This document shows, in pieces, positions 7,785 to 24,741 of a stretch of 32,000 nucleotides of DNA; position 1 is the stretch's first letter, and the number at the start of each line of letters is the position of its first letter. This stretch comes from Candidatus Nanopusillus sp. Lineage in GTDB: Archaea > Nanobdellota > Nanobdellia > Nanobdellales > Nanobdellaceae. A program made the position numbers and the translations under genes. The notes under the pieces are model-generated. The model was given only the letters and a program-made list of their open reading frames with translations. It ran no database searches and was not told where the DNA came from. The stretch covers positions 60,001-92,000 of the forward strand of contig JAWDOO010000001.1 in NCBI GenBank assembly GCA_046533775.1, in the 5' to 3' direction.

Positions 7785-8636
7785 ATGGGTAGAATAGCTA
7801 TATTCACAAAAACCAATTTAAAAGATTATAGAATAATAAAATTAAAAGAGGAAATAAAAAATTATAATAACATTAGCATTATTGATATAGAAAAAGAAAA
7901 TATATTTCCATATAATGAAAATATATTAAACTATGATTTATATTACTTTTTCGTTGGATCAAATTTTTTATCAGATATACACTTTCTAGCAAAATATCTT
8001 GAACAAAATGGAAAAAGAATAATAAATAAAATACACGTTAAGGAATCTATAATATCAAAAACCCTATTTTATAGTATTCTAAATAAATATATAAAAATTC
8101 CAGAATTTGTGAAAATATATTCAATAGATAATATAGAATATGTAATAAATAAAATAGGATTTCCAATGATAATAAAGCATCAATTTATTCATAGGGGAGA
8201 ATTTGTACATAAAATAGATAATGAAAAAGAATTATATGATTTTTTAGAAAAATATTTATTAGAAAAAAGAATAAACATAAAACATTTAATATTTCAAAAA
8301 TATATACCTTATGAGAAAGATATAAGGATAATTTTCATAGGAAAACCAATTGGTGCAATGGAAAGGATTAATAAAAATAGTTTTAAGGCAAATATCAGTC
8401 AAGGTGGATATGGAAAACAATATAACTTAGATCAAGATATAATAGATATTGGATATAAAATTATGGAAAAATGCGACTTACAGATATTTGCATTTGATCT
8501 ATTATTAAAAGATAATCAATATTATTTGATAGATTTACATCATATATTTCAATATGAGGGATTTGATAAATATTTAAATAAAAATATTACAAAAGAGATA
8601 TTAAATTACTTAAATGAAATTAGTAATAAAAGCTAA
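7785..8636 (+). CDS. ATP-grasp domain protein (RimK-like ligase family)
   Basis: 283 aa. The C-terminal half has the RimK/glutathione-synthetase-like ATP-grasp pattern: MIIKHQFIHRGEFVHKI, IFQKYIPYEKDIRIIFIGKPIGAMERI...FKANISQGGYG, and FAFDLLLKDNQYYLIDLH. The substrate is unknown. Confidence 0.6.
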   Translation: MGRIAIFTKTNLKDYRIIKLKEEIKNYNNISIIDIEKENIFPYNENILNYDLYYFFVGSNFLSDIHFLAKYLEQNGKRIINKIHVKESIISKTLFYSILNKYIKIPEFVKIYSIDNIEYVINKIGFPMIIKHQFIHRGEFVHKIDNEKELYDFLEKYLLEKRINIKHLIFQKYIPYEKDIRIIFIGKPIGAMERINKNSFKANISQGGYGKQYNLDQDIIDIGYKIMEKCDLQIFAFDLLLKDNQYYLIDLHHIFQYEGFDKYLNKNITKEILNYLNEISNKS

Positions 8637-9021
8637 AGGAAATAAATTAATAAAGGCAACGCATAAAAGTACTCTAGAAATTACTAAAGATAATTATTTA
8701 ACTGAAAAAGGAGATTGTATAATCGGTATAAATGCAAATTACTCTGTAAAAGATTTACCAGAAGATCTTAAAGATCATTTATTAAATGAAGGAAAGATAA
8801 AGATTGTAATTAAAGTTGATGATTTAATAGATAATATAATTGCATATGGTTCAAGAAATTTATTGTTAACAAATGATAGAAGTATTGTTATAAGAAAAAG
8901 CAATTATATTGATGATAGAACTTTGGCAATAAATTCAAATAAGAGTGCTATTGATATTGATAGAAGATTGATAGAAAGATTAAGGAATGAAAGGGATTTA
9001 GAATTTATAATATATTACTAA
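8614..9021 (+). CDS. DUF371-like archaeal protein
   Basis: 135 aa. ATHKSTLEITKDNYLTEKGDCIIGINA matches my recollection of the DUF371 signature (H-x-T-x-E-I-T-K...GDCIIGV). It overlaps the upstream ORF by 23 nt. Needs HMM confirmation. Confidence 0.5.
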   Translation: MKLVIKAKGNKLIKATHKSTLEITKDNYLTEKGDCIIGINANYSVKDLPEDLKDHLLNEGKIKIVIKVDDLIDNIIAYGSRNLLLTNDRSIVIRKSNYIDDRTLAINSNKSAIDIDRRLIERLRNERDLEFIIYY

Positions 9022-9056: not shown

Positions 9057-9818
9057 ATGAAAAGAAGGGGTATAGATATGGCTGTACAGTTAATATTTGT
9101 AATAATAATAATGTTAGTAGTAGCAGTTATTGTAATTAAGTTATTCCAGCAACAAACATCAAAGATTAGTCAAATATCAAATACACAGATACAACAGGCA
9201 GTTTCAGATTGCTCAAGTTATTGTTCAGATCAAGTAACATTTTGTACAAAGTATGAAGACATAGGAAATGGACTTGTAGAAGTAAGTCCTGGATATTATA
9301 TTTGTTCAAATGCTGTTCCATGCAGTGTAGTATTACAATTATATGGTGGCCCTTCTAGTCAATGTCAATATCAGGGATATCCTATAACTCCTCTAGATTG
9401 TATGTATTTAGAATGTCAAAATTATATTGATAATTTATATTATGATCCATTACAAGCAACAAGTTATGTATTCGGTAACTATTCTCCTACTACATATTTT
9501 AATGCAACAACTGGACAAGTAAATATACAAATTTCTTCTCCATCTCAAATATTAAATCCAGGTCCATCACAATGCTCTGCACAATTACCAACATGGATTA
9601 CAAACCAAGTATTTGGTGCATTATTAAATATTATTAACTATTATAATACTGCAGATAATTGTAATTTGAATTTAACAGTTAATAATGAAGTATTAACAGT
9701 AACTGGAAATTGCACAGCATTGGGTATAAATAATAATGTCAATGGAATGCCATTATGTCAATTCTTATTGCAAGTACCATATTCCCAGTTGAATAATATA
9801 CCAAGTGTAACAAGCTAA
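9057..9818 (+). CDS. Cys-rich secreted protein with pilin-like (class III signal-like) N-terminus
   Basis: 253 aa. MKRRG|IDMAVQLIFVIIIMLVVAVIVI has basic residues, then Gly, then a hydrophobic helix, the canonical prepilin-like arrangement. The mature part has many Cys and NxS/T sequons and few charged residues. An alternative ATG at 9078 (MAVQL...) is preceded by aagggg. Confidence 0.5.
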   Translation: MKRRGIDMAVQLIFVIIIMLVVAVIVIKLFQQQTSKISQISNTQIQQAVSDCSSYCSDQVTFCTKYEDIGNGLVEVSPGYYICSNAVPCSVVLQLYGGPSSQCQYQGYPITPLDCMYLECQNYIDNLYYDPLQATSYVFGNYSPTTYFNATTGQVNIQISSPSQILNPGPSQCSAQLPTWITNQVFGALLNIINYYNTADNCNLNLTVNNEVLTVTGNCTALGINNNVNGMPLCQFLLQVPYSQLNNIPSVTS

Positions 9819-9822
9819 TGTA

Positions 9823-11793
9823 ATGAGTTTTTTTGAGTATTTTTATAATAATTTTAATTTAATAAAAATAAAAGCTCCTGATCCAATATATAAAAGATAT
9901 ACATTTCATTTATGGTTAAATAGACTAAATACAAATCCAGATAATATATTTTCTTCTGTAATAACTCTTATATTATTTTCTATAATTATATATTTCATTC
10001 TAAGTTTTATAAGTTTTCAATTTGCTTTTTCTTTATTAATATCATTATTAATATTATCATTTTATTTTGCATATTATCCTATATTCTATACACAAGTTGT
10101 TAGAATACAAGTAACATCAGAAATTGTATGGATAATATTATATTTATCATTATATCTAAAAAGAAACCCAAATTTGGAAAATGGAATAAAATATGTAGCA
10201 TATTATATGAAAGGCTATATTGCAACAGACTTTAAATCATTATTATATAATTTAGAAACAAATAAATTTAATGATATTGAATCTGCATTAGAATATTATC
10301 ATAGAAGATGGTTTTATCTAAGTCCAGATTTTGTATATGCAATGACACATATTGTAAATATTAAATATAAGAATTCTATTGATGATATAAATAAATTATT
10401 AGATAGAATTTTAGGATGGGTACTAAAGAAATCCCTAGAAAAATCTCAATTATATGTAGATGCCTTAAAGGAACCAGCAACAGTTATAGTATCTTTCTTA
10501 GTAATGATGCCAATAGTTAGTTTAATGATGTTACCAATAATATCTGTATTTTTATTAAATACTGTAAGTTTCTATTTCATAGCATTTTCATATATAATAA
10601 TTTTACCTGTTATTACATTTTTAATAATTCAAAACTTCTTATCAAAAAATCCATTTGCATTCTCTGTTCCAGATTTATCTTTAGCAAGAGATCTACCAAA
10701 ATCTGGAAAATTTAAAATTGGAAATAAAGAAGTTCCAGCAATAATAATTTCAATAATATTGGGATCAATTGCAATTTTTGGAATATATCATTTAATTTCC
10801 CTAGCTATAGAAATTACATTTATTCCACAAGGATTCTTAAGTGATTATTTAAATATAGTTTACCAGGATAGAGCATTAATATATTCTGTTTTAACTTTAA
10901 CATTACCTTTGGGATTAGGTTTAGGTGTAGGATCTTATTATTATTTAACATCTTTCCAAAAGGTTAAAAAAATATATCAAATTGAAGAAATAGAAAATGA
11001 ATTTCCAATTGTTGTATATGAATTCGCATCATTATTAGAAGATGGCTATCCATTTGAAATAGTAATTGAGAAGACATATTATAATTATAAAATAATAAAA
11101 TCTTCTGGAGTTATGGAAAGCTTTCTAAAAACAACACTATATAATTTGAGAAAAGGCTATGATTTAAGTACTTCTATATTCGATCCAAAAATCGGTTCAT
11201 TAAATTTATATCCATCAAAATTAGTAAGAGAATCTATGCAATTGTTAGTTACTTCTGCATCAAAAGGTCCTGAAGTTTTATCAAAAATTGCATATAATAT
11301 ATCAACAAATTTGGAAAATGTAGATAATATAAGATATAATGTAAGGAAAACATTAAATGAAATAATTGGATTAATAGATATGACATCAAGAAATTTAGTA
11401 CCATTAATTTCCGCAATAGTTACAATTTTTAATAATGGAGTAGTTTCTATGCTTTTTGCACTTGCATATTTCTTTCAATTAATAGACCAATCTTTTGGGC
11501 TTGGTGGAGGAACAAATTTATTTAATTTCATTGTAAATACATTTAATCTATATAATTTAATACCACCAACATTTTTTGAAGCAATAATTGGTATATTTTT
11601 TATAGAATATGTAATAATAACTTCATATATGAGTGCTGGAATAAAATATGGATTTGATAATATAATGACATCATATTATATAGGTAGAAATTTATTATTC
11701 GGAACAATATTTTATGTAATATTTTCAATAATAGGAATATTAATAGTATATACAGTATTTGGCCCATATTTACCAACAAATATACAATTATGA
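9823..11793 (+). CDS. Polytopic membrane protein, T2SSF/FlaJ/TadC-like pilus platform candidate
   Basis: 656 aa with about 9-10 hydrophobic spans. Two roughly 110-140-aa soluble helical segments are each followed by a TM bundle: the first runs about EIVWIILYLSLYLKRNPNLENGIKYVAYYMKGYIATDFKSLLYNLE...ALEYYHRRW...LDRILGWV, the second about IENEFPIVVYEFASLLEDGYPFEIVIEKT...LYNLRKGYDLSTSI...LVTSASKGPEVLSKIA. This is the duplicated architecture of T2SSF-domain platform proteins. Assigned by eye only. Confidence 0.5.
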   Translation: MSFFEYFYNNFNLIKIKAPDPIYKRYTFHLWLNRLNTNPDNIFSSVITLILFSIIIYFILSFISFQFAFSLLISLLILSFYFAYYPIFYTQVVRIQVTSEIVWIILYLSLYLKRNPNLENGIKYVAYYMKGYIATDFKSLLYNLETNKFNDIESALEYYHRRWFYLSPDFVYAMTHIVNIKYKNSIDDINKLLDRILGWVLKKSLEKSQLYVDALKEPATVIVSFLVMMPIVSLMMLPIISVFLLNTVSFYFIAFSYIIILPVITFLIIQNFLSKNPFAFSVPDLSLARDLPKSGKFKIGNKEVPAIIISIILGSIAIFGIYHLISLAIEITFIPQGFLSDYLNIVYQDRALIYSVLTLTLPLGLGLGVGSYYYLTSFQKVKKIYQIEEIENEFPIVVYEFASLLEDGYPFEIVIEKTYYNYKIIKSSGVMESFLKTTLYNLRKGYDLSTSIFDPKIGSLNLYPSKLVRESMQLLVTSASKGPEVLSKIAYNISTNLENVDNIRYNVRKTLNEIIGLIDMTSRNLVPLISAIVTIFNNGVVSMLFALAYFFQLIDQSFGLGGGTNLFNFIVNTFNLYNLIPPTFFEAIIGIFFIEYVIITSYMSAGIKYGFDNIMTSYYIGRNLLFGTIFYVIFSIIGILIVYTVFGPYLPTNIQL

Positions 11794-12074
11794 AATTACA
11801 ACAATCAATATATTGGATTATAATAACTTTTATATTAATTATAGCTGCTGGTCTATTTTCTTTTTATTATATTTATAAAATAAAAAATAATTTGAATGGA
11901 AATAGTATACAAACAATTAATTGCCAACAATTAGAAAATTTATATAATAAAAGCTTTTATGAAATAATTAATATTAAAGTATTTCTTAATGAAAATTGTA
12001 CAATAAATGGAATAACAATACCTGCAGGCTATAGAATTATATATATTTATAACGGAAGTATTAATTATATATGA
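11790..12074 (+). CDS. Small pilin-like protein (N-terminal hydrophobic helix)
   Basis: 94 aa. N-terminus is MKLQQSIYWIIITFILIIAAGLFSF. ATGA overlaps occur at both ends (11790, 12071). It ends in a beta-strand-like YRIIYIYNGSINYI. Confidence 0.45.
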   Translation: MKLQQSIYWIIITFILIIAAGLFSFYYIYKIKNNLNGNSIQTINCQQLENLYNKSFYEIINIKVFLNENCTINGITIPAGYRIIYIYNGSINYI

Positions 12075-12550
12075 AGAATGATATAGCAATAGATACTGTA
12101 TTTATTATAATAATAGCAATAATATCTGTTGTAGTTATATTAGATATTATTTTTACAAAATTTTTTTATAATTCTCAAGCATATTATTGTCAAACATTAA
12201 TATCACAAGGAGATTTTTCTCCATCATGTGAAAAATATTATCCTTCAGCAATAAATGTTATATATACAAATGAAAGTAATGATACAATTTATTCAGATAT
12301 AACAGGATTAATATTAAATTGCTATAATAATAATGTAAATACAAATAAATTATTTAACATATGTTATGATATTTATATAGATGAGAACATTACTCTTAGT
12401 TCATCAATATTAATTCAATATATACAAAATTATACCGCATTTAATCCAAACAATATTATATTCTATTTAAATAATAATGAAGGAAATATATATCCATACA
12501 ATAGTATATTTATAATATATAACAATAGTTATATTGTAATATGGCAATAA
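12071..12550 (+). CDS. Small pilin-like protein (N-terminal hydrophobic helix)
   Basis: 159 aa. N-terminus is MKNDIAIDTVFIIIIAIISVVVILDIIF. Contains paired Cys (ILNCY...NICYDIYI). The C-terminus is SIFIIYNNSYIVIWQ. Confidence 0.45.
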   Translation: MKNDIAIDTVFIIIIAIISVVVILDIIFTKFFYNSQAYYCQTLISQGDFSPSCEKYYPSAINVIYTNESNDTIYSDITGLILNCYNNNVNTNKLFNICYDIYIDENITLSSSILIQYIQNYTAFNPNNIIFYLNNNEGNIYPYNSIFIIYNNSYIVIWQ

Positions 12551-12954
12551 AGTCTCAAGAACTTCCAATTAATTATACCTTCTTAATAATTATAGGAATA
12601 ATTGTTACAGTAGTAATTTTAGGAATAATATTTTTATTGAAAGGAAATATAACTTCTTATATTAATAATATAATGCCAAAATATAATAATACACAAACAG
12701 TAGTAGAAACAAATGTAAGTTCAATACAAGATGTTGCAATGGATATAGTAGCATGTTATTATAAAAAAGCTCAGGGTCTTTGTTATTTAATTAATTATCA
12801 AGGAAATCCATTTACATGTCAGGATTTAATAAATAATGTAAGTAGTATAGATCCAAATGTAGTAATGCAAAATTGTAATTATAATATAAATCCGGGAGAA
12901 TATATATTAATATATTCGACAGGAAATTATGTTTATATTAATGTCCAAGGATAA
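12541..12954 (+). CDS. Small pilin-like protein (N-terminal hydrophobic helix)
   Basis: 137 aa. N-terminus is MAIKSQELPINYTFLIIIGIIVTVVILGIIFLL. The IVACYYKKAQGLCYLINY motif resembles that of the preceding ORF. The C-terminus is YILIYSTGNYVYINVQG. Confidence 0.45.
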   Translation: MAIKSQELPINYTFLIIIGIIVTVVILGIIFLLKGNITSYINNIMPKYNNTQTVVETNVSSIQDVAMDIVACYYKKAQGLCYLINYQGNPFTCQDLINNVSSIDPNVVMQNCNYNINPGEYILIYSTGNYVYINVQG

Positions 12955-12956
12955 AA

Positions 12957-13397
12957 ATGGATAAATGGCTTTGGATAATTGTAACAATTATTGCTTTTGG
13001 TTTATCTTTATATTTATATTTTAAATTTTCAAGCATAAATAATCAGACTCAATTATTATATCAAGATATATCATCTTGCCAAAATTTATATACAACAATT
13101 GAAAGCGTATGTTATTCAAACAATGGAACAGAAATTTATATTAATATTGAAATAAACAAGTATTTAAATTATATTTATGGTAATAATAGTTTATTAAGTT
13201 GTTATATATATGATGAATATTACAATTATACATTACCATGCAATATAATAATAAATACAACAAATAATATGATTCAATACTATACTTCTGGATTATTTTA
13301 TGAATTATCCTATGGAAATCCAAATGAAAAAATCCCATTACTTGTTGAAAAAACAACTCCAACAGAAGTAACAATTTATATAGAAAATCCAAGTTAA
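12957..13397 (+). CDS. Small N-terminally anchored or secreted protein
   Basis: 146 aa. N-terminus is MDKWLWIIVTIIAFGLSLYLYF. It is the last gene before the 37-nt gap at 13398-13434. Confidence 0.4.
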   Translation: MDKWLWIIVTIIAFGLSLYLYFKFSSINNQTQLLYQDISSCQNLYTTIESVCYSNNGTEIYINIEINKYLNYIYGNNSLLSCYIYDEYYNYTLPCNIIINTTNNMIQYYTSGLFYELSYGNPNEKIPLLVEKTTPTEVTIYIENPS

Positions 13398-13434
13398 AAA
13401 TTTTTAAAATTTTTTTAAGTATTATTAACTCATA

Positions 13435-14964
13435 ATGAAAAGAAATCAATTAAATTTAATTTCAGTGGCAATAATATTGATAATTATATCTTTAGCTTTT
13501 ATAATATATTATCAATATTCCATGAATGTTAAAAAACAGCAAGAAAATTTAATATTTGAAAATTTTATTAATAACTTACAAAATTTAGAAAATACAATAA
13601 ATAGTATTCAAGGTACATATTATGTAAAAGTTAATATACCAAATGGAGTTATATTATATACAAATGGTACAGAATTAATAATACAATATAACAACAATAA
13701 TTATACAATTAATTTTTACAAGAATGTAACATTATATAATAATAACAATCAAAATGTAAGTTTCCTATATCCAAACAATTATATATATCTTGTTAGTACA
13801 AATAATACTGTTTTTATCACAACAAATCTTCAAAATTCAATTACAATATTAAATGAATATTTACCAAGTGGAACTCTCGTATATGTAAGTCCAGGAAATA
13901 ATCAAAACAATAATAATCAAAATAATGGAGGAAATAACAATAATAATAATATTAATCAAAATGCTCAATGCTTATTTGAGTATACTGGACAGGCAAACTT
14001 TTTCTGGGGTAATGTAAATGGAAATAATTATTTACCTCCAATAGGAGATCAAGGAGAATGTGGAGACTGTTGGGCATTTGCATCTGCAAATGGAATTGCT
14101 TCAATATATATGATAAGAAATAATAATCCAAATGAAGGATTGCAATTATCTCCAGCATACTTAGCAATAGAATGCAATAATGGTTATCCAAATGCACCAA
14201 GCTATTGTAATAACAATATAGGTTGTAATGGTGGTTGGCCATATTCTGGTATATTATTTACATCTCAATACGGAATTCCACCTGATCCAGGATGGAACTA
14301 TTATGATTCTACTTTAGCTAACTGTTCAGAAAATAATGATCAAAGTTATCCTGGTGATGTATGTAATCAAAACTATAATGGGCCCAGCTCTCCATTATAT
14401 TATTCACAAGGTGTTATAGATCTTGAACAAAACGGACCTTTAACAGATCAACAAGTAATTCAAGATTTATTATGTTATGGGCCATTAGTTGCTGCTGGGA
14501 TGCTAGCAGGAAGTGGTGGATCAAATCCAAATATAGATCCACAGCAAATAGTATCCAGTTCCGGACATGCAATGTTATTAGTTGGCTATACTACTGGCAA
14601 TACTATATATTCTCAAATATGTCAAGAAGTATATGGAACACCAGATTGTTGGATATTTGAGAATGAATGGGGGGATAATTCAAACTGTATAGTTCTTACT
14701 ACAAGCGGAGTACCAGTATCTATACTAAGCAATCCTACTCAGTGCGGTGAACTATATCAAAATTATCAGGATTGCAATACTTATCTACAATCAGTTTTTA
14801 ACACACCAGGAATAGCATGCGGAGGTGTTTATTGGATGCAAGATGGATATTTGCTTGTACCATTTGATCAATCTCCCTATGGTTTAACATTCATTGGTAC
14901 ACCTTTTTCTGGCCAAATTTATGGAGACCTTGTAGCAATCCAAAATGTCACTATTTCACAATAA
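13435..14964 (+). CDS. Papain-family (C1) cysteine peptidase with pilin-like N-terminus and poly-Asn linker
   Basis: 509 aa. N-terminus is MKRNQLNLISVAIILIIISLAFIIYY. The C-terminal domain aligns by eye to papain. GDQGECGDCWAFASANG carries the oxyanion Gln and the catalytic Cys212 (14068-14070), with the same Q-x5-C spacing as papain NQGSCGSCWAF. Also present are LSPAYLAIEC, GCNGGWPY, SSGHAMLLVGY (His378, 14566-14568) and WIFENEWGDN (Asn-x-W). Confidence 0.85.
   Translation: MKRNQLNLISVAIILIIISLAFIIYYQYSMNVKKQQENLIFENFINNLQNLENTINSIQGTYYVKVNIPNGVILYTNGTELIIQYNNNNYTINFYKNVTLYNNNNQNVSFLYPNNYIYLVSTNNTVFITTNLQNSITILNEYLPSGTLVYVSPGNNQNNNNQNNGGNNNNNNINQNAQCLFEYTGQANFFWGNVNGNNYLPPIGDQGECGDCWAFASANGIASIYMIRNNNPNEGLQLSPAYLAIECNNGYPNAPSYCNNNIGCNGGWPYSGILFTSQYGIPPDPGWNYYDSTLANCSENNDQSYPGDVCNQNYNGPSSPLYYSQGVIDLEQNGPLTDQQVIQDLLCYGPLVAAGMLAGSGGSNPNIDPQQIVSSSGHAMLLVGYTTGNTIYSQICQEVYGTPDCWIFENEWGDNSNCIVLTTSGVPVSILSNPTQCGELYQNYQDCNTYLQSVFNTPGIACGGVYWMQDGYLLVPFDQSPYGLTFIGTPFSGQIYGDLVAIQNVTISQ
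13897..13962 (+). repeat. Asn/Gln-rich low-complexity linker (AAT/AAC/CAA-rich tract) inside the protease gene
   Basis: Encodes NNQNNNNQNNGGNNNNNNINQN, between the N-terminal roughly 150-aa domain and the papain-like domain. Confidence 0.8.
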
Positions 14965-15769
14965 ATATTTAATAGTATTATTTATTCTCTTTTTTATAAT
15001 TTTATCCTATAATATATATTCTATGAAGAATCCATTTGCAGTTTATTGTGAATATGGTGGAGGAATATATTATATAAATAGTACAGGATCTTATTGTATT
15101 GTAAATGGTACATACTTCAATGCTTTACAATATTATGAAAATGAAGTACCTCCTCAATATTCTTTTTGTGCCCATTATGGATTAATATATGTAAATAGTA
15201 GTTATTGTGAATATCCAAATGGAACATTAGTTAGTCCATATACATTAATTCCTCCATCGGCATATCAAGATTTAATTATAATTCCAAGAGTATATTGTAA
15301 TAGTTTATTAAATTGTTCAAATACTCCATGGTATTATTCACCATGTTCAAATCAAATCTATCCATGTTTTAATCCACCATATATACCACCTTCTTATTTG
15401 ATAAATAATGCTTCATATCAGACCGTATTATATGTATATAAAACAGAATATATGTGCGGATATTGTCCAGAAAACTTATCATTTGAAGGAGATTGGTTTA
15501 GATGCCCATATAACTATTCATTAGATCAATTATATCAAGAATTTTTACAACAATGTCCACCACCAAGTATTGTTTATATATCATGTACAGGTGTATTTGA
15601 ATGCATAAATCAAACTCAAATAAATGTAACAAACAATACTCAGCAATTAATTTATCCACAACCAAAAGTAAGCATTCAAAACAATAATGTTAATTTAGTT
15701 TTACCAGTAGCAATAGTAATAGTAATAATTATAATAGGCCTAGTTATTCTTTTATATTATCTAAAATGA
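14945..15769 (+). CDS. DUF333-like Cys-rich secreted protein with C-terminal TM anchor
   Basis: 274 aa. Signal-like N-terminus: MSLFHNKYLIVLFILFFIILSYNIYS. NPFAVYCEYGGGIYY...GSYCIVNGTYFNALQYYENE resembles the DUF333 (putative hemolysin, PF03891) motif NPAsvYC...GG...G.C...G...eW.yyrGeC, with a second degenerate copy (CAHYGLIYVNSSYCEYPNGT). The C-terminal helix is LVLPVAIVIVIIIIGLVILLYYLK. It overlaps the protease gene by 20 nt. Confidence 0.45.
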   Translation: MSLFHNKYLIVLFILFFIILSYNIYSMKNPFAVYCEYGGGIYYINSTGSYCIVNGTYFNALQYYENEVPPQYSFCAHYGLIYVNSSYCEYPNGTLVSPYTLIPPSAYQDLIIIPRVYCNSLLNCSNTPWYYSPCSNQIYPCFNPPYIPPSYLINNASYQTVLYVYKTEYMCGYCPENLSFEGDWFRCPYNYSLDQLYQEFLQQCPPPSIVYISCTGVFECINQTQINVTNNTQQLIYPQPKVSIQNNNVNLVLPVAIVIVIIIIGLVILLYYLK

Positions 15770-17424
15770 AAAATCAGATAAATATATTAGCATTTGTTAT
15801 TATTATTTCAATAATAATTTTATTAGTTCTTTTAGTTTATCTTTTATCAACCAGTTATAGTTCTAAAATAACACAAACATATAATGTAGAAAATCAATAT
15901 ACATTAACAATTCAAAATAGCATTGATTTATTACCTTATATCTATGATAATAAAGTTAATTTATCTTATGCATTTTTATTATCATATTTTTCATCTTCTG
16001 GAAATGATACATATTGTATAAATCAAAATATATGTACAAACATATCGGAAGATTTAATAAATTATTTTGATAGTATATATGGAAATAGATGGAACTTAAC
16101 AATATATTTCCTTCCTCCTGTAACTGGATGGATTGTTCAGATGTTTATAATGGGTGGTAATCTTGGAAATTGGGATCCATGTTCAATGAATCCCCCTCCA
16201 GATCCTGATGGTACACAATGGTATGAGTGGAATTATACATATTTCTTTGTAAATAATTATACAGAAAATATTAATCTACCAAATGTATATAATCCATTTT
16301 CTAATACGCCAATACAGCAGACCTTATATGGAGCAGGATGGGTAAATGCAACAGCACCATTTCATCAATCTCGATCGATAAGTTCGTGGGGATTACCAAC
16401 ATTATATAATGGAATGACCCAATCTCTAGCTGTACAAACTGGTTTCTGTACACCATTAACAAAAATATTTCCAAATTATAATTTTACAGAAGCCTCTGTA
16501 TATTGTCCTCAAGGTGAATGGAATTTATTTCCAAATTATGTAGGTGGAGGTGGTACTCCAGCGCAACCTACCTATTATTTACCCTCTTTCTTTTCTGGAT
16601 ATTTATGTATTTTTGCTGGATCTTGTCCTGTGACTAATAATATATATTTAACATCTATACCATATTATTATCAAAGCCCTCCTATTTATAAAACTGCTAC
16701 TGATATAAATAGATTAGCAGAATTTATAATCCCACAACAATATTTAGATGATATATGCCAAGAAGAATTTCATACAAGCTATTCAGGTCCTTCCCAGCAA
16801 TGTGGAGGTCAAGAAATGATTGTTGGAGCATTTTATAGAGGTGTAGTAAATATACCACCAAATTGCCAACAAGTATTTATAGATTATCCATGGCATGAAG
16901 TAATAAGATTGTATATCTCATTTTTGAATAAAAGTGGAGAACCTGATTATGTATTTTTAGCAGCAGATCCTTTCTGTGAATATAATTTAAATGGAGAAAT
17001 AATAGATTGCCCAACTGGTGTATTTGATAGTATACAAAATGTAAGTGGAATTATTGTTGGAAAAGAATGTCCTCTAGTTTATTTAGGAAATATTAATATA
17101 AATAGTGAAGGATTTTATAGATTTAATATTACTCAATGGGTAATAGATGATAGAGATCCAAATACAAATCAGTTTATAATTTCTGGAGTATATTATGATC
17201 CTCATCCTGGAGGAAATGGTATTGCAATGGCAAGAGTATATTGTATTACAAATACTGGAAATGTTGAAGAACTAAATTCATATATTTATGAAGGTAGTGG
17301 AGAATCAATGAGTCTAGGATACCCAATACCCCCAAATATAAATATATATGTTTCTTATATATATTTACCAATGGATATACCATTCCTAGGCGGATATCTA
17401 GTTGCTAAATTAACGGTATGGTAA
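15766..17424 (+). CDS. Large secreted protein with pilin-like N-terminus, no recognisable domain
   Basis: 552 aa. N-terminus is MKNQINILAFVIIISIIILLVLLVYLL. It has many Cys, Pro, Tyr and sequons. ATGA overlap at 15766. Confidence 0.5.
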   Translation: MKNQINILAFVIIISIIILLVLLVYLLSTSYSSKITQTYNVENQYTLTIQNSIDLLPYIYDNKVNLSYAFLLSYFSSSGNDTYCINQNICTNISEDLINYFDSIYGNRWNLTIYFLPPVTGWIVQMFIMGGNLGNWDPCSMNPPPDPDGTQWYEWNYTYFFVNNYTENINLPNVYNPFSNTPIQQTLYGAGWVNATAPFHQSRSISSWGLPTLYNGMTQSLAVQTGFCTPLTKIFPNYNFTEASVYCPQGEWNLFPNYVGGGGTPAQPTYYLPSFFSGYLCIFAGSCPVTNNIYLTSIPYYYQSPPIYKTATDINRLAEFIIPQQYLDDICQEEFHTSYSGPSQQCGGQEMIVGAFYRGVVNIPPNCQQVFIDYPWHEVIRLYISFLNKSGEPDYVFLAADPFCEYNLNGEIIDCPTGVFDSIQNVSGIIVGKECPLVYLGNININSEGFYRFNITQWVIDDRDPNTNQFIISGVYYDPHPGGNGIAMARVYCITNTGNVEELNSYIYEGSGESMSLGYPIPPNINIYVSYIYLPMDIPFLGGYLVAKLTVW

Positions 17425-18629
17425 AAAAAGAAGATAAAATCTTATTTCTCATATATTTAATATTATTTTTACTTTTTATTTATATTAGCAACTTTAATAT
17501 TAATATAATTATTTTTGGCACAATTTATTTATTCTTATTATCTTTTATATTAAAAAATTCAAAGAATACATCTTTAATATATAAATTAATATTTCCATTA
17601 TATATACCAATTGGAATCTTTGGAATTTATACTAATTTACCTTTACCATTTCCATTTCCATCAATATTTGGTTATATAATAAATTACTGGGTATTTTATT
17701 TCATAGCATTTTCTATGGGATATTATTTATTTGAAAATAACTTTTATATTTCAAAAAAATCATCAATATTTTATATAACTTCAATAATATTATTTATAAT
17801 ACAATTTTTCCTAGAATTTATTTATAATTCTGCAACTACAGATCTTGATGCAAAAGCAAACTATATAGTAGCTTTGTTCATTAATTATGCATATTTAAAT
17901 TTTTACACTTTTGAGACAATATATACTTTATTATTTATTGTTTTTGCAATTTTCTTATTCTTAGTTATGTACTTTAATGGCAATGAAATATTAATAACAA
18001 AAACACAAATATTCAGGAAACTATCTGAAATATATAAATACAAAAAGTATATATTTCTATTATTATTTATTATAATAATATTACAGATTATCATTGCTAT
18101 ATACAAATTATCATTTTATAATAGTTTAATTATAGAAAGTTCAGCTGGAGAATATAGTATCTATGAATATGAATCTCTAATATTTTTATCAATATACGAA
18201 TTTATAATTTACTTTTTAGTTTATAGAAACTTAAGATATAATGATTATACAAATTACTTATTACTTTTTACTATGGTTTTAATAATATTTTTTGGAGAAC
18301 TATATTTAACATATATAGACTTTGCTTCTGTAATTTTACATACTAGATATCTAATAGCTATGCTATTTTTCTTGATGGGAATTCATCATAGAATATATAA
18401 AAATAGTAAAAAGGCAATTACAAAAGCCTTAGGTATTTCCATCGGTATTTTAATTTTATTACAAAATATAACTGGAGAATTTATCGAATCTGTATATTTT
18501 GGAGGACCAAGTAGTATACATCTAATATCTATACCAAATATATTAATGGCACTTGGAATTATACATGGATTAGTGACACCAATCCTTATATTAACATTTA
18601 TATATTTGCATGTTAAATTAAAAATATGA
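17418..18629 (+). CDS. Polytopic membrane protein (paralog of 20570-21640)
   Basis: 403 aa, about 10 hydrophobic spans, no Cys. It shares blocks with the 356-aa ORF: IIFGTIYLFLLSFILKNSKN vs ILFGIFYFFVLYYFLKNTKFN, FENNFYISKK vs AENKLSINRK, and MLFFLMGIHHRIYKNSKKAITKALGISIGILILLQN vs MFLFFFTAIHAYLYHRFPDSKKIILGIVSGIPFILMN. Confidence 0.6.
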   Translation: MVKKEDKILFLIYLILFLLFIYISNFNINIIIFGTIYLFLLSFILKNSKNTSLIYKLIFPLYIPIGIFGIYTNLPLPFPFPSIFGYIINYWVFYFIAFSMGYYLFENNFYISKKSSIFYITSIILFIIQFFLEFIYNSATTDLDAKANYIVALFINYAYLNFYTFETIYTLLFIVFAIFLFLVMYFNGNEILITKTQIFRKLSEIYKYKKYIFLLLFIIIILQIIIAIYKLSFYNSLIIESSAGEYSIYEYESLIFLSIYEFIIYFLVYRNLRYNDYTNYLLLFTMVLIIFFGELYLTYIDFASVILHTRYLIAMLFFLMGIHHRIYKNSKKAITKALGISIGILILLQNITGEFIESVYFGGPSSIHLISIPNILMALGIIHGLVTPILILTFIYLHVKLKI

Positions 18630-19864
18630 GAAATCAAGTAGAAATTATTTACGTGGTTTTATTTCTAACAATTGCTATATTAATAATCCTTCTATCTTTT
18701 TATGCATTAACATATAATTATAATCAAAATATTGTTTTTAATAGATTTACTTCATTATCTACATTATCAAATTATCTTTTAGGATATTTACAAACATTAT
18801 TAACACAAGAAGGTTATGCAGAATCATATGTAGCTGGTACAAATGGATGGGGAAATGAAGAATGGGCTTCTTATCCTTACGGATGTATATTACCTCAATC
18901 ATGTCAAAATGCACTTCAATATTATAATAATTTATTAACTTCTGGATATGAAACTTTATTAACTTTTGGAGAACAATATTTAACTTCATATCAATATTAT
19001 TATCCCTATAATATATCTTTCAATTTTTCAAATAATTATCAGGCAGGAATTTTTGGAGATTGTAGCAATATAATTTCTGGAGAATACAATTATAATTTTC
19101 CTGTTTATGTTCAAGGTTTATATATAAATATTACAGGACCTTCTTCAGGTTCAATAATTCCATATGAAAGTACATCAAATATAACAAACAATCCTGCATT
19201 CTATTTGTATAACTTAGCATATCAGTTCTCTCAAAATGGAGAATTTTCAGATTGCTCATATCAAGATTGTTTAAATACATTGAATAATAATCCAACATCT
19301 ACATGTGCACAAGAATTTGAGCAATTTTCAAATAATCCAAATATTCAATGTAATGAAACTGTAATTCCATATCAATGTGAAAACATACCGTTATGTCAGA
19401 TATGTTTAAATCCTGAAGAAATTGCGTGTAAGGTAATATTACAATGTTCTGATAACCAATATAATGTATATTATAATGGTAATACATATCCACAAACAAT
19501 AACAATTACTTCGGTAGTTTTTTATGAAAATGTAACAAATCAATATTATTTAAATTGCGTATATGATTGTACTGAGACATATAATTTAATAAGTAATCAA
19601 GTAATATCTCAAAGTTGTACATTAGAGAATCAACAATATTCATGTTCTCCCCAAAATGGTTGTGGTAATGTAAATACAAATCAACAAGATAATGAATTAA
19701 CATATAATTTTCAATATTATTATTCAATCCCAATTGAATGCTATCTATGTATAATTGGTGGAGAGCAATGTCCTGCCTGTTTACCTGGCGAATGTCCGAA
19801 TAATCCAACATGTCCAGAAACCATATCATTTCCAAATGAATGTGTATCACAACCATCTAGTTAA
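18626..19864 (+). CDS. Cys-rich secreted protein with pilin-like N-terminus
   Basis: 412 aa. N-terminus is MRNQVEIIYVVLFLTIAILIILLSFYAL. The C-terminal half is very Cys-dense (e.g. CYLCIIGGEQCPACLPGECPNNPTCPETISFPNEC). ATGA overlap at 18626. Confidence 0.5.
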   Translation: MRNQVEIIYVVLFLTIAILIILLSFYALTYNYNQNIVFNRFTSLSTLSNYLLGYLQTLLTQEGYAESYVAGTNGWGNEEWASYPYGCILPQSCQNALQYYNNLLTSGYETLLTFGEQYLTSYQYYYPYNISFNFSNNYQAGIFGDCSNIISGEYNYNFPVYVQGLYINITGPSSGSIIPYESTSNITNNPAFYLYNLAYQFSQNGEFSDCSYQDCLNTLNNNPTSTCAQEFEQFSNNPNIQCNETVIPYQCENIPLCQICLNPEEIACKVILQCSDNQYNVYYNGNTYPQTITITSVVFYENVTNQYYLNCVYDCTETYNLISNQVISQSCTLENQQYSCSPQNGCGNVNTNQQDNELTYNFQYYYSIPIECYLCIIGGEQCPACLPGECPNNPTCPETISFPNECVSQPSS

Positions 19865-19929
19865 TCTTTATATGGATAAAGTGAAGAAGAAGTTAAGGAT
19901 ATAAGAAATGTTCTAGATAACTAAATAAA

Positions 19930-20577
19930 ATGAAAGAACAATTATCTATAATATTTATAACAATATTAACTGTATTATTTTTAGTTGGAATGATAATTTT
20001 ATTAGCTATATTTTCTAATATAAATTTAACAAATTATAAAGAACAAACATCCTTTTCATATGAACAAGATATAATATATGATCTATTTTCTCCAAATTGT
20101 TTGGGATATCCAAATTATCCAATATATTTTACAACATTAGAAAAATTGGAACAATTTAATCAAATATATTATAATGAACTTCCAAATTGTACAATATTTC
20201 CTTATACATTTAGGGCAGAAATAGATAATTATAGTTTTGGAATAATAAATTTTAATGGAAATTGCAATACATATACATATCCAATTTCTTTGTATTATTC
20301 TCTAGATTATATTAAATTAACTATATGTAAAAACTATTATTCAGATTTTTATTATTTTTTATATAGTTTCTGTTTAAGTAATGAAAATATTTCAAATCAA
20401 ACTTTTGTATTTTTATTTCCAACAAATTTATCTGGAAATATAACATGTACAGAAAATACAAATGGAGATATTATATGCAATTATATACCATGCTATTCAA
20501 TAAATAATATTACATTTTATCAACTTGTAACAGTATATTTAGAAAGAATTAATCAAACATATTTTAGAATTGCATAA
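19930..20577 (+). CDS. Secreted protein with pilin-like N-terminus
   Basis: 215 aa. N-terminus is MKEQLSIIFITILTVLFLVGMIILLAIF. It is Cys-containing and sequon-rich. It is preceded by a 65-nt gap with an atataag box about 32 nt upstream. Confidence 0.5.
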   Translation: MKEQLSIIFITILTVLFLVGMIILLAIFSNINLTNYKEQTSFSYEQDIIYDLFSPNCLGYPNYPIYFTTLEKLEQFNQIYYNELPNCTIFPYTFRAEIDNYSFGIINFNGNCNTYTYPISLYYSLDYIKLTICKNYYSDFYYFLYSFCLSNENISNQTFVFLFPTNLSGNITCTENTNGDIICNYIPCYSINNITFYQLVTVYLERINQTYFRIA

Positions 20578-21640
20578 AAGTTTTAATGAATTTCTATATA
20601 TAATGGGTGAAACCATTATAGATAGATTAATCGATGAAAACAAAAATATCAATAAGCATATACTTATATTATATTTAATAATATTCCCAATATCTATGTT
20701 ATTTTTTACAAATTTATATTATATCTTATTTGGAATATTTTACTTCTTTGTTTTATATTATTTCTTGAAAAACACAAAATTTAATATGATAAAAATTTTA
20801 TATTTATTAATTTTTTTATTGCCTATATTAAATATTTTTAATAATATTTTATTTAAATATTTTGTTTATGTATTTTTTTCATTTATTTTATTTTATTTCT
20901 TTGGAAATTTTGTTGCAGAGAATAAATTATCTATAAATAGAAAACAAATAATAATATTAATAATTTCTCTAATATATATTTTATTTATAACATTATACAA
21001 TATTATAAATATTTATTCTCTATTTTTTATATCCCTTCTAGGATTTTTATTCAATTTGGATGATAAAAAAGTATATCATTTAGGTTCATTAAATTTTTTA
21101 AGCAAATATAACCAAATTATTTTCTCCATAATTTCTCTTTTTATATTTATACAGTTAATACTTTCTTTAATTGCTCAAAATATTTTAATATTATTTACTA
21201 TATCTTTATTCTCAATATTAGAATTTATTTTATTGTTAATGATTAAAAGAATATTTGATAATAAACCAGAAGGATTCACAATGTATATTTTAATATTAAT
21301 AATATTTTCATTTATCTTCTTTACAATTTTATTTTTCTTAACAAAAATCAATATAATTTACATTATTCAAAATATTATAATTATGTTTTTATTTTTCTTT
21401 ACAGCAATTCACGCATATTTATATCATAGGTTTCCAGACAGTAAAAAAATAATTTTAGGAATTGTTTCAGGAATACCATTTATATTAATGAATTTAATAA
21501 ATTATTTTTACTATATTTATCAAGGAAATTTAATTAATTTTCCTTTATTCATAATTTTATTTTCAATAAACTTACTAATATTAGCAATTATGGGATTAGT
21601 AATAGTTTATATACATTCCATATATAAAAAGCATATTTAA
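20570..21640 (+). CDS. Polytopic membrane protein (paralog of 17418-18629)
   Basis: 356 aa on the ORF track. The codon at 20570 is TTG; the first in-frame ATG is at 20603 (MGETIIDRL...), so the true start is uncertain. There are multiple hydrophobic spans and no Cys. Paralogy blocks are listed under 17418-18629. Confidence 0.6.
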   Translation: MHKSFNEFLYIMGETIIDRLIDENKNINKHILILYLIIFPISMLFFTNLYYILFGIFYFFVLYYFLKNTKFNMIKILYLLIFLLPILNIFNNILFKYFVYVFFSFILFYFFGNFVAENKLSINRKQIIILIISLIYILFITLYNIINIYSLFFISLLGFLFNLDDKKVYHLGSLNFLSKYNQIIFSIISLFIFIQLILSLIAQNILILFTISLFSILEFILLLMIKRIFDNKPEGFTMYILILIIFSFIFFTILFFLTKINIIYIIQNIIIMFLFFFTAIHAYLYHRFPDSKKIILGIVSGIPFILMNLINYFYYIYQGNLINFPLFIILFSINLLILAIMGLVIVYIHSIYKKHI

Positions 21641-24429: not shown

Positions 24430-24741
24430 ATGAATGATATTACTATAATGACTTATAGTTTATCATTCCTCATAGGATATTTTTCAGCAGATTATATAAT
24501 TAGAAAATTTTCACCAGAATTCTTTATTGAAATTAAAACAAAGACAAAAGAATATAGAGCAAAAATTCATCATATATATTTATCAATATTTGGAATAATA
24601 CCAGCAATAATTGGAATGATTACATATTTATATGAATTATATATATTAACAACATTATTTTTGGGCGCTGCAATTCATGATGCAATATTAGAAATAAGAA
24701 AGAGATTTAAAAAATTAGATTATATTAAACAAAGCAAGTAA
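24430..24741 (+). CDS. Small membrane protein (about 3 TM), unknown function
   Basis: 103 aa with three hydrophobic segments. It converges on and overlaps the 3' end of the 1421-aa ORF by 27 nt. Confidence 0.45.
   Translation: MNDITIMTYSLSFLIGYFSADYIIRKFSPEFFIEIKTKTKEYRAKIHHIYLSIFGIIPAIIGMITYLYELYILTTLFLGAAIHDAILEIRKRFKKLDYIKQSK

Follow-up and report, generated by a model that had tools for sequence, protein, structure and literature searches.

The gene at positions 13435 to 14964 of the analysed window, a stretch of 32,000 nucleotides, encodes by its sequence a papain-family (C1A) peptidase, in which the protease domain is carried on a small pilin-like module. We read the product, with a probability of about 60%, as an active extracellular papain-type endopeptidase of 'modular pilin-like' build that acts on surface proteins at the contact site; enzymatic activity, leader processing, filament incorporation, the substrate and the role of a DUF333-like neighbour are what we infer. 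The window is chromosomal DNA of a Nanopusillaceae nanoarchaeon, and members of this family are ectosymbionts of hot-spring Crenarchaeota. A virus or mobile-element context was rejected, since the window carries core genes for RNA polymerase, ribosomal proteins and LonB. The peptidase as such was already known, as it bears the NCBI annotation 'Peptidase C1A'; new are its architecture and context, which were previously undescribed. The nanoarchaeal literature examined, including bioRxiv 10.1101/2023.10.27.564410, makes no mention of this C1 peptidase. The gene has the following features.

13435..14964, + strand: whole gene of the modular C1A cysteine peptidase, 509 aa with ATG start; ortholog of N. 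acidilobi Nps_00495 and N. stetteri Nst1_643; arCOG03611
13435..13524, + strand: leader MKRNQ and hydrophobic helix of ~22 residues (aa 1-30); short leader of class-III-like type, in which Gln5 is conserved and follows a non-canonical residue
13525..13884, + strand: carrier N-module (aa 31-150), in which the helix continues as an amphipathic stretch and ~7 beta strands follow (low-confidence models); homolog of a free 141-aa protein in strain YN1
13885..13968, + strand: flexible Asn/Gln/Gly-rich linker (aa ~151-178), hypervariable in length and composition among orthologs; an apparent recombination junction
13969..14961, + strand: C1A peptidase domain of predicted papain fold (aa 179-509), with ~15 conserved Cys and no I29 propeptide
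14050..14070, + strand: oxyanion Gln206 (14050-14052) and catalytic Cys212 (14068-14070) in DQGECGDCWAF, from alignments and family conservation
14566..14568, + strand: catalytic His378 in GHAMLLVGY, from profile alignment and family conservation
14662..14670, + strand: Asn410 (14662-14664)-Glu-Trp412 in ENEWG, equivalents of papain Asn175/Trp177
14695..14817, + strand: Cys-containing insertion (aa 421-461) that immediately follows the Asn/Trp motif and is hypervariable, with a mean pairwise identity of 0.33-0.43

The open reading frame lies exactly where the first-pass annotation had placed it (13435-14964), on the + strand with an ATG start and 509 aa. The annotation had described a complete C1 catalytic set in papain-like register. 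The PF00112 (Peptidase_C1) search that it asked for matched aa 198-415 with E=3.7e-18 and 66.8 bits (cutoff 20.7), and the same domain was present in 40/40 orthologs. In the alignment with papain, DQGECGDCWAF lies opposite NQGSCGSCWAF. The family-profile alignment with human cathepsin C (3pdf) sets GHAMLLVGY opposite NHAVLLVGY and CWIFENQWG opposite YWIVKNSWG. Among 39 family members, the Cys, the His and the Gly23 and Trp26 equivalents are found in 39/39, the Asn in 38/39, and the Gln and Trp412 in 37/39 each. The catalytic set thus stands, and the Cys and His codons had been assigned correctly. An AF2 model of the C1 domain reached a pLDDT of 70-93, and Foldseek matched it to cathepsins B/K/L/V and papain-like enzymes with a probability of 1.0 and TM scores of ~0.6-0.69; the domain is thus predicted to adopt the two-lobed papain fold. 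As had been noted before, there is no I29-type propeptide: Pfam gave no I29 (PF08246) match in the 509-aa protein, and the mature-type motif FFWG starts straight after the linker. The protein has a single N-terminal TM segment, seven N-glycosylation sequons and about 15 conserved Cys, features that speak for an extracellular location.

When 1.84 billion representatives were searched, matches with E<1e-30 fell into only five clusters, and the next match had 66 bits. The nearest C1 domains outside the family (<=66 bits) are a mix of DUF333-C1 proteins and helix-anchored archaeal proteins, and related proteins were found in ANME-1 and Altiarchaeales. The earlier statement that such peptidases are uncommon in archaea is therefore roughly right but not absolute, given these relatives and the existence of arCOG03611.

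The N-terminus consists of the short basic leader MKRNQ followed by the hydrophobic helix LNLISVAIILIIISLAFIIYY (~20 residues), and the gene table of N. acidilobi lists one TMD and no Sec signal peptide call for the ortholog Nps_00495. A canonical prepilin-peptidase site, [KR]-[G/A/S], is absent; N, Y, D, V or L precedes the conserved Gln in the orthologs, whereas the known archaeal prepilin peptidases need G, A or S before the cleavage site. Two AF2 runs gave a helix at ~aa 3-57 followed by seven strands, with a pLDDT of 40-60 over the N-module, and the N-module modelled alone reached ~60. Foldseek of this model against the PDB returned no significant match (best E=0.2, unrelated beta proteins). 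Comparison of the N-module with the N-terminal modules of distant C1 proteins that carry canonical class III signals (P0049, P0051, P0091, P0114, P0149) was negative by hmmsearch; hhalign with P0051 and P0149 gave a weak match (E=0.009 over 45 columns) that is suggestive only. The hydrophobic helix and the helix-beta module (aa 1-150) are present as first described, and so is the Asn/Gln linker, which is rich in N, Q and G.

The N-module had also been said to resemble the small neighbouring proteins. Within the window this likeness did not hold, as BLASTP and phmmer gave only E>0.3 against all small neighbours, and paralogy with them was dropped. The support came from strain YN1. There, the N-module is a free-standing 141-aa protein (52% identity, E=4e-28), and an in-frame fusion joins the C1 domain to a different subunit of the o12957 family (60% identity, E=2e-60), a carrier on which it was also found in L004. 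The free-standing protein in YN1 supports counting the N-module of the peptidase among the small subunits of the operon. The carrier had been proposed to act as a prodomain surrogate. This is unlikely because the linker is hypervariable and predicted to be disordered, and because the C1 domain sits on another carrier in YN1; in the full-length AF2 model the linker had a pLDDT of 24-38 and the N-module showed no confident docking.

The peptidase gene lies within an operon of 12-13 genes (9057-21640), in which neighbouring genes overlap. Nanopusillus acidilobi, Nanobsidianus stetteri, Nanobdella aerobiophila and strain YN1 show full synteny over the operon, which was found in all three cultured Nanopusillaceae systems. 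Gene order is identical in 10 genomes, with peptidase identities down to 39-44%, and every cultured relative has an intact full-length peptidase ORF. The remaining parts of the operon are listed here.

9057..9818, + strand: first operon gene (o9057), 253-aa Cys-rich protein with the canonical class III (prepilin-type) signal MKRRG↓IDMAVQLIF
9823..11793, + strand: divergent TadC/PilC/FlaJ (T2SSF) platform protein (o9823), as judged through homologs, 656 aa, 9 TM; ortholog Nps_00520, arCOG01814
11790..13397, + strand: four small N-terminally anchored subunits (94, 159, 137 and 146 aa), the last of which (12957-13397) is the alternative C1 carrier in YN1 and L004
14945..15769, + strand: DUF333-like gene (o14945) overlapping the end of the peptidase gene, with signal peptide, DUF333-like Cys domain (aa 27-81), Cys-rich region and C-terminal TM anchor
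15766..21640, + strand: rest of the operon, with Cys-rich proteins of 552, 412 and 215 aa that have an M-[KR]-x-Q leader, and two paralogs (403 and 356 aa) that are polytopic membrane proteins

Besides o9057, whose class III site reads [KR]R[GA]↓[IV]D across orthologs, seven families including the peptidase share an M-[KR]-x-Q-hydrophobic N-terminus, and the Gln is kept across orthologs. The site of o12541 agrees in part with that of prepilin peptidases (K[SG]↓QE). Four genes upstream of the peptidase, in the same operon, lies o9823. Direct detection of T2SSF by Pfam, NCBIfam and PDB profiles was weak or negative (Pfam, 2/6 orthologs, E=0.044), and hhalign detected no internal repeat. Distant full-length homologs of o9823 (E=4e-69 and 2e-61) exceed the Pfam T2SSF threshold with two repeats, and the protein was independently assigned to arCOG01814, which is TadC. 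Its nine TM segments and two soluble domains (127 and 154 aa) agree with the T2SSF family layout of two repeats, each with a cytoplasmic helical domain and then TM helices. Thus, by way of intermediate homologs, o9823 is assigned as a divergent TadC/PilC-type platform protein. Neither a secretion ATPase (FlaI/PilB/VirB11 family) nor an A24 prepilin peptidase is encoded in the operon or the 32-kb window. In N. acidilobi, ATPases are encoded elsewhere, and one of them, Nps_02250, adjoins a second arCOG01814 gene; a keyword search of its gene table yielded no A24 peptidase. The two polytopic paralogs, o17418 and o20570, were considered as the missing prepilin peptidase and rejected, as they have no GxGD motif and no Asp is invariant in o17418. 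The earlier pilin-like reading is largely supported, although by other evidence: the platform protein, the class III signal of o9057, the common leader motif and the free module in YN1 speak for it, but the peptidase itself has no canonical cleavage site. For the surrounding cluster, gene content largely supports a type-IV-filament-like nature. A probable S-layer gene was observed ~10 kb from the peptidase gene. In the N. acidilobi proteome, neither the peptidase nor any other operon product was detected.

The overlapping downstream gene was compared with DUF333, a domain that many other organisms have in fusion with C1 peptidases. Pfam matched o14945 to DUF333 (PF03891) with E=0.0095, below threshold, and one Cys pair of the DUF333 pattern is missing. 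A custom HMM built from 56 C1-fused DUF333 domains gave E=1e-6 in a 48-sequence database, with matches only to four orthologs/paralogs at the same position. No solved structure of DUF333 was found. The DUF333-like protein is likely a partner of the peptidase and may serve, for example, as chaperone, inhibitor or substrate adaptor.

The protease domain evolves fast. In four comparisons the peptidase gene had the highest dN of the operon, with a dN/dS of 0.31-0.40; gene-wide values below 1 give no indication of positive selection, and a dN/dS near 1 was seen only in the tiny linker. In 99% of 741 pairs, conservation was lower in the C1 domain than in the carrier, and in some pairs the carrier was 97-99% identical and the C1 domain 69-72%. 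The C1 domain is thus faster-evolving than its carrier and mosaic relative to it. Within the domain, the catalytic residues are fixed, and the equivalents of papain Tyr61 and Tyr67 and the loop 421-461 are hypervariable. In our preferred reading this pattern counts as a signature of the host interface. Those operon proteins that are putative substrates were 66-95% conserved in the comparisons in which the peptidase was fastest.

In our preferred reading, a tethered surface protease, the short leader and hydrophobic helix, the small carrier domain, the flexible Asn-rich linker and the protease would work as one device. The carrier would be one of about eight small subunits of a conserved, Nanopusillaceae-specific, type-IV-filament-like operon with its own TadC-type platform. 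The protein would be inserted through Sec, and its N-terminal helix would then either stay in the membrane or be extracted by the platform and built into a short pilus or a pseudopilus-like structure, for which an ATPase would be supplied in trans. The linker could let the protease extend past the symbiont's own envelope and cut surface proteins at the contact site, most probably the host S-layer (or the symbiont's own). Cleavage of the S-layer would let the attachment organelle touch the host membrane. Cryo-ET has shown that this organelle crosses the host S-layer in Nanobdella and YN1, and its proteins were left unidentified there (PMC11420986, PMC11104419). Given this literature, degradation of the host S-layer is plausible, and it is purely what we infer from it. 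There are precedents for such a build: in archaea, proteases as well as binding proteins carry class III signals, and Gln stands at +1 in EppA-type sites (PMC2910488); domains grafted onto pilins are known too.

The same protein could be a plain membrane-anchored ectoprotease for nutrition, with an uncleaved signal anchor and no pilus machinery, which digests environmental or leaked host proteins for an amino-acid-auxotrophic symbiont and shares the operon through co-expression only. We consider this unlikely. The single TM segment, the missing canonical prepilin site and an operon that has no ATPase or prepilin peptidase agree with it. Nanoarchaea also lack most biosynthesis (PMC4935971, PMC11420986), and many prokaryotic C1 homologs are secreted and degradative, for example matches with dockerin or cohesin. 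However, it leaves unexplained why seven unrelated families beside a TadC paralog have a conserved Gln leader, why the protease domain occurs on two different small subunits of one operon, and why the specificity-determining positions show strain-level mosaic diversification. This diversification also bears on a self-directed protease, which would process the Cys-rich surface proteins of the operon or clear the symbiont's own S-layer where the cone is inserted, without attacking the host. Fixed self substrates predict high conservation, but the peptidase has the highest dN of the operon and hypervariable subsite equivalents, and the putative operon substrates are the conserved proteins in the same comparisons. 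We therefore hold a self-directed role to be quite improbable, even though cryo-ET shows the cone replacing the symbiont's own S-layer at the contact site, the peptidase is tightly linked in the operon to large surface proteins with a probable S-layer gene ~10 kb away, and the gene of the DUF333-like partner overlaps that of the peptidase.

Fast evolution could also be a sign of lost function. In that case the papain fold would be a non-catalytic or decaying domain, either an adhesin- or lectin-like binding module or a domain under relaxed constraint. That the peptidase is the fastest-evolving gene of the operon, that the oxyanion Gln is replaced in two family members (P0038 and P0039) and that the protein went undetected in the N. 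acidilobi proteome would fit. The invariance of Cys, His and the Gly23/Trp26 equivalents, with near-invariance of Asn and Gln, extends across lineages down to 39% identity, a dN/dS of 0.3-0.4 corresponds to purifying selection, and the ORFs of all cultured relatives are intact and full-length. These observations make a non-catalytic domain very improbable.

For the tethered surface protease a further-reaching scenario can be drawn, which we regard as speculative and rather doubtful. The operon at 9057-21640, with its TadC paralog, about eight Q-leader pilin-like subunits, the C1 peptidase and the DUF333-like partner, would encode the machinery by which Nanopusillaceae attach, or else a device of type-IV-filament-like kind that serves it, and the tethered C1 peptidase would cut the host S-layer locally so that the host membrane enters the cone portal. 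Host range would be tuned by recombinational swapping of protease cassettes and by the hypervariable subsites. The 'missing pilins' would be found in the Q-leader proteins, as partners of the orphan TadC/ATPase pair that Makarova et al. reportedly described in nanoarchaea in 2016.

How contact forms despite the S-layers was an open question in two 2024 cryo-ET papers (PMC11420986, PMC11104419). The peptidase, as a surface cysteine protease on a pilin-like carrier, is a family-wide conserved candidate for the enzyme that opens the host S-layer, and its specificity-determining positions vary from strain to strain, with an unchanged active site. This idea is directly testable, since co-cultures exist and E-64-type inhibitors stay outside cells. 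The 'modular pilin' and 'bindosome' concepts would be extended to protease cargo in DPANN archaea, and the findings suggest that very short Gln-type leaders form a class that escapes pilin predictors. With C1 peptidases as its partners, the widespread DUF333 domain would for the first time have a functional context.

Compared with papain and cathepsins (MEROPS C1A, PF00112), the nanoarchaeal enzyme has the same catalytic Gln, Cys, His, Asn and Trp in canonical motifs, the same GCNGG glycine loop, papain-type disulfide cysteines and the same predicted papain fold, with cathepsins B/K/L/V, papain and DPP1 as best PDB matches. Identity to solved C1A enzymes in structural alignments is only 14-20%. 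In contrast to papain and cathepsins, it lacks the I29 propeptide, which is typical of eukaryotic C1A zymogens and not strictly defining, and it has a further Cys pair around SQICQEVYGTPDCW, located between the strands of the His and the Asn, the hypervariable insertion of ~40 aa after the Asn/Trp motif and the N-terminal membrane/pilin-like carrier.

On the side of the carrier, the closest parallels are with pilin-type systems. Archaeal binding proteins with class III signals are likewise functional non-filament proteins with a pilin-type N-terminus; they come with a TadC/FlaJ-type platform and small pilin-like proteins and were proposed to be held near the membrane/S-layer (PMC2910488). Here, the cargo is a protease, and the operon has no ATPase. 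With 3-4 residues the leader is far shorter, the presumed +1 position is a Gln, and the residue preceding this Gln is non-canonical. A discrete carrier domain and a linker lie between helix and cargo. Modular type IV pilins such as Streptococcus sanguinis PilB/PilC, with bulky domains on a pilin moiety, also combine a pilin-like module with a grafted functional domain. In our case the grafting event is shown because the carrier is a stand-alone subunit in YN1 (YN1_141); the protein differs in being archaeal, in carrying a C1 peptidase and in having no class III site acceptable to known peptidases, and its filament incorporation is only proposed. Similar to the EppA-dependent (DUF361) pilins of euryarchaea, several co-encoded small proteins have a conserved Gln directly before the hydrophobic helix (PMC2910488), but they have no QxSxExxxL motif, the -1 residue is not Gly, and no EppA-like gene was identified.

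Fusions of DUF333 and Peptidase_C1 from uncultured bacteria and archaea (P0050, P0053) carry DUF333 (E=5e-20 and 7e-17) upstream of C1 in one polypeptide. Here the same two domains are split between two genes, with the DUF333-like one in the overlapping downstream gene; it lacks one Cys pair and has in addition a Cys-rich region and a C-terminal TM anchor. Finally, the thermopsin-like proteases of Nanobdella aerobiophila (bioRxiv 10.1101/2023.10.27.564410) have the same proposed role, which is degradation of the host S-layer by a surface protease. Those enzymes are aspartic proteases of the thermopsin type with Ig-like folds and C-terminal anchors, whereas the peptidase described here is a cysteine protease of the C1A family.

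The open reading frame that the first-pass annotation placed at 13435-14964 is present on the + strand, starts with ATG and encodes 509 residues. In the Pfam search that this annotation had called for, residues 198-415 were assigned to Peptidase_C1 (PF00112; E=3.7e-18, 66.8 bits versus a gathering score of 20.7), and phmmer against the PDB matched papain, cathepsin C, ananain, falcipain and cathepsins L/K. The codons named earlier for the catalytic Cys and His were correct. The following residues were located:

14050-14052, +, Gln206
14068-14070, +, catalytic Cys212
14566-14568, +, catalytic His378
14662-14664, +, Asn410

A family-profile alignment placed three motifs in register with human cathepsin C (3pdf). 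DQGECGDCWAF of the peptidase aligned to NQASCGSCYSF, GHAMLLVGY to NHAVLLVGY, and CWIFENQWG of the family to YWIVKNSWG. Cys, His and the Gly23- and Trp26-equivalents were kept in all 39 aligned family members, the catalytic Asn in 38, Gln in 37 and Trp412 in 37 of the 39. The AlphaFold2 model (40-sequence alignment) reached a pLDDT of 70-93 for residues 210-509, and Foldseek matched its C1 domain to cathepsins B/K/L/V, chymopapain, bromelain and ficin (probability 1.0, target TM 0.6-0.69). The earlier observation of a papain-family peptidase was thus confirmed. As also described there, an I29 propeptide was not detected; the linker passes straight into a mature-type FFWG motif. Two homologues, P0038 and P0039 (locus L003, 4742-6388), carry Thr/Ser at the oxyanion-hole position Gln206, an altered flanking motif (PPAETKFCGACWAV) and a Gly/Ser-rich linker of ~100 residues, with Cys, His and Asn kept. 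These changes may point to another mechanism or to lower activity.

The window has a GC content of ~24%. It encodes split RpoA'/A'' and RpoB'/B'', RpoH, L30e, LonB, arginase and UDG and is therefore part of an archaeal core chromosome. In a scan of species-representative genomes, the peptidase gene was restricted to Nanopusillaceae. About 40 full-length orthologs (54-87% identity) were found in hot-spring metagenomes, among them the NCBI entry 'Peptidase C1A subfamily [Candidatus Nanobsidianus stetteri]'. Identity was 80% in N. stetteri, 75% in the cultured Nanopusillus acidilobi 7A, 44% in both Nanobdella aerobiophila MJ1 and strain YN1, and 39% in MAG KM4331-16. The N. acidilobi ortholog, Nps_00495, and the remaining operon products were not detected in the proteome of that species. 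Among 1.84 billion representatives, searched exhaustively with HMMER, just five clusters reached E<1e-30, all of which appear to belong to the nanoarchaeal lineage or near relatives. Below these the score dropped to 66 bits, and the family is therefore an isolated C1 clade. The distant matches included helix-anchored C1 peptidases of other uncultured archaea (P0049, P0051, P0091, P0114, P0149, P0081), with members of clusters named Methanophagales and Altiarchaeales. These proteins have an N-terminal TM helix, a helix-plus-beta module and a Cys-rich spacer; two carry a canonical class III site (MRKG/IA or MKG/TI, slash marking the cleavage position), and several share the signature GYDDxSxxCxxxYGxxxCW with the nanoarchaeal family. 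Helix-anchored C1 peptidases may form a broader class in archaea.

In strain YN1, the N-terminal module occurs as a free-standing 141-residue protein (MKNQISFLNVG..., 52% identity, E=4e-28), and the C1 domain forms an in-frame fusion with a homolog of the small neighbouring protein o12957 (60% identity over all 146 residues, E=2e-60), after which come a further beta domain and a Pro/Ser linker. The N-module thus counts among the small subunits of the operon, with the protease as a cargo that was grafted onto two different carriers. In YN1 (10900-12704 of its locus), the free-standing N-module gene lies between two DUF333-like genes (283 and 172 aa); in this lineage, the operon was rearranged in the region of the protease and its partner.

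The peptidase gene lies in an operon of thirteen co-directional, mostly overlapping genes (9057-21640, +). Their order (253-656-94-159-137-146-C1-274-552-403-412-215-(356), in residues) was the same across all genomes examined, including Nanobdella and YN1, and the membrane and surface proteins around the peptidase matched no Pfam family. The 656-residue protein o9823 (9 TM) belongs to a family placed by Wurch et al. in arCOG01814, which is TadC, pilus assembly protein, in the list of Makarova et al. A direct T2SSF match to this family was weak (2/6 orthologs, E=0.044), and o9823 had no PDB match and no detectable internal repeat. Stronger evidence for a platform protein came from a profile search, which retrieved distant full-length homologs (E=2e-79 to 2e-34; an Aenigmarchaeota MAG supplied one of them), of which P0211 (36.6 bits) and P0214 (26.5 bits) exceed the Pfam T2SSF threshold, each with two matched stretches at positions corresponding to the two cytoplasmic domains of o9823. 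The first gene product, o9057, has in all orthologs the N-terminus [KR]-R-[GA]-/-[IV]-D-M-A-V-[QE]-L-I-F, a canonical class III signal. Seven other operon families (o11790, o12541, the peptidase, o15766, o18626, o19930 and the free-standing YN1 module) start with M-[KR]-x(0-2)-Q and ~20 hydrophobic residues. The Gln is kept across orthologs down to 40-50% identity, and the preceding residue varies (G, S, A, N, E, L, Y, V, I). Gln at +1 is known from EppA-processed euryarchaeal pilins (PMC2910488). Two AlphaFold2 models of the N-module gave a helix at about residues 3-57 plus seven strands at a low pLDDT of 40-60, with no significant Foldseek neighbour.

The pilin-like system proposed in the first-pass annotation was therefore largely borne out by the platform protein, the class III signal, the shared leader and the carrier being a subunit. 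What did not fit strict membership is that the residue before Gln in the peptidase is not G/A/S, that neither a secretion ATPase nor an A24 peptidase is encoded within the operon, and that the N-module models are of low confidence and lack a significant structural neighbour. A second arCOG01814 (TadC) gene of N. acidilobi adjoins a proteome-detected secretion ATPase (Nps_02245/Nps_02250) and has no pilins nearby, and according to Makarova et al. 2016 the cognate pilins of this nanoarchaeal ATPase clade 'could not be identified'. The present operon holds a TadC paralog and many pilin-like proteins without an ATPase; we infer that the two loci may be complementary.

Several observations concern the surroundings:

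7785-9021, +, RimK-type ATP-grasp ligase and DUF371 protein, which in all syntenic genomes directly precede the operon on its strand
17418-18629, + and 20570-21640, +, polytopic, Cys-free membrane proteins, distant paralogs with conserved His/Glu/Arg motifs (LHTR, G.IHG, FTAIHA.L.H)
24715-28980, -, 1421-residue ORF adjoining LonB, with a Sec-type signal, 55 N-x-S/T sequons, 25 Cys and a C-terminal TM anchor

The paralogs were ruled out as A24 prepilin peptidases, since GxGD is missing; that at 20570-21640 is missing from otherwise syntenic loci (L001/L009, L003, L007, L010, L013). The 1421-residue ORF matched no Pfam family, occupies the position of N. acidilobi Nps_00425 'S-layer domain' (arCOG02079), and is probably an S-layer or giant surface protein. 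GC and AT skew change sign at ~8 kb (-0.28 to +0.36), where minus-strand RNA polymerase genes give way to the plus-strand operon, most simply a coding-strand bias and not a replication landmark.

Across orthologous loci, the peptidase was the least conserved operon protein. It was 57-61% identical to its counterparts in L001 and L003, compared with 62-95% for the neighbours, and 44% identical in YN1 and Nanobdella, compared with 71-77% for the TadC homolog. Its dN was the highest in the operon in all four close comparisons (0.10-0.25). The gene-wide dN/dS of 0.31-0.40 in these comparisons indicates purifying selection overall and does not demonstrate positive selection. Divergence breaks at the linker: against L007, the carrier had dN 0.028 and dS 0.24, the C1 domain dN 0.200 and dS 0.55. 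The C1 domain was less conserved than the carrier in 99% of 741 family pairs, and in many pairs the carrier was 94-99% identical, the C1 domain just 68-72%. This contrast in the sequences speaks for an exchange of the protease cassette by recombination.

Within the varying C1 domain, the catalytic residues are fixed, and a non-catalytic or decaying domain is accordingly hard to credit. By motif register, the equivalents of papain Tyr61 and Tyr67, which we take to form the S3/S2 subsite walls, rank 17th and 29th of 331 in variability, with radical changes (E/F/M/I and W/D/R/Q). An insertion directly after the Asn/Trp motif (residues 421-461) had a mean pairwise identity of 0.33-0.43. The picture is one of a conserved catalytic engine with predicted specificity surfaces that diversify, as would be expected for an enzyme facing variable external substrates; a self-directed protease for maturation or S-layer remodelling seems improbable to us. 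Nps_00495 (arCOG03611) has one TMD and no Sec signal-peptide call, and archaeal proteases, like substrate-binding proteins, are known with class III signals (PMC2910488). A plain signal-anchored protease for nutrition is rather unlikely beside the carrier exchange in YN1.

We put at roughly 60% the reading that the peptidase is active outside the cell as a C1A endopeptidase and belongs to a type-IV-filament-like operon specific to Nanopusillaceae. The protease would be mounted on a pilin-like carrier subunit, held by the flexible linker at or beyond the cell surface, and would act on surface proteins where symbiont and host meet. In Nanobdella aerobiophila and YN1, cryo-ET revealed an 'attachment organelle' of cone, portal and filament, which takes the place of the symbiont's own S-layer and reaches through that of the host to touch the host membrane; according to the authors, the proteins of the organelle are unknown and contact despite S-layers is unexplained (PMC11420986, PMC11104419). 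A Nanobdella preprint speculated that thermopsin-like proteases degrade the host S-layer (bioRxiv 10.1101/2023.10.27.564410). This C1 peptidase was not mentioned in the nanoarchaeal papers that we checked. The peptidase makes an open question in DPANN symbiosis approachable by experiment.

C1A enzymes are a known family, to which the existing annotation already assigns the gene. Apparently undescribed are the architecture and the swapping of the carrier, the short Gln-type leaders, the operon with its TadC homolog, the DUF333 pairing and the mosaic evolution. The pairing concerns o14945, whose gene overlaps the peptidase gene by 20 nt. A Cys-rich domain, DUF333 by Pfam (E=5e-20 and 7e-17), precedes the peptidase in 56 of the 148 best non-family C1 matches. 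An HMM of these C1-fused domains, run against 48 operon proteins, matched only o14945 and its orthologs/paralogs (E=4e-7 to 4e-5), in each case just behind the signal peptide; Pfam DUF333 itself matched o14945 with E=0.0095. No solved DUF333 structure was found. Since the domain sits where C1A zymogens carry their propeptide, it could plausibly act as a chaperone or inhibitor. In other organisms DUF333 and C1 form one polypeptide, whereas here two overlapping genes would represent a split version, which implies a functional partnership of o14945 and the peptidase.
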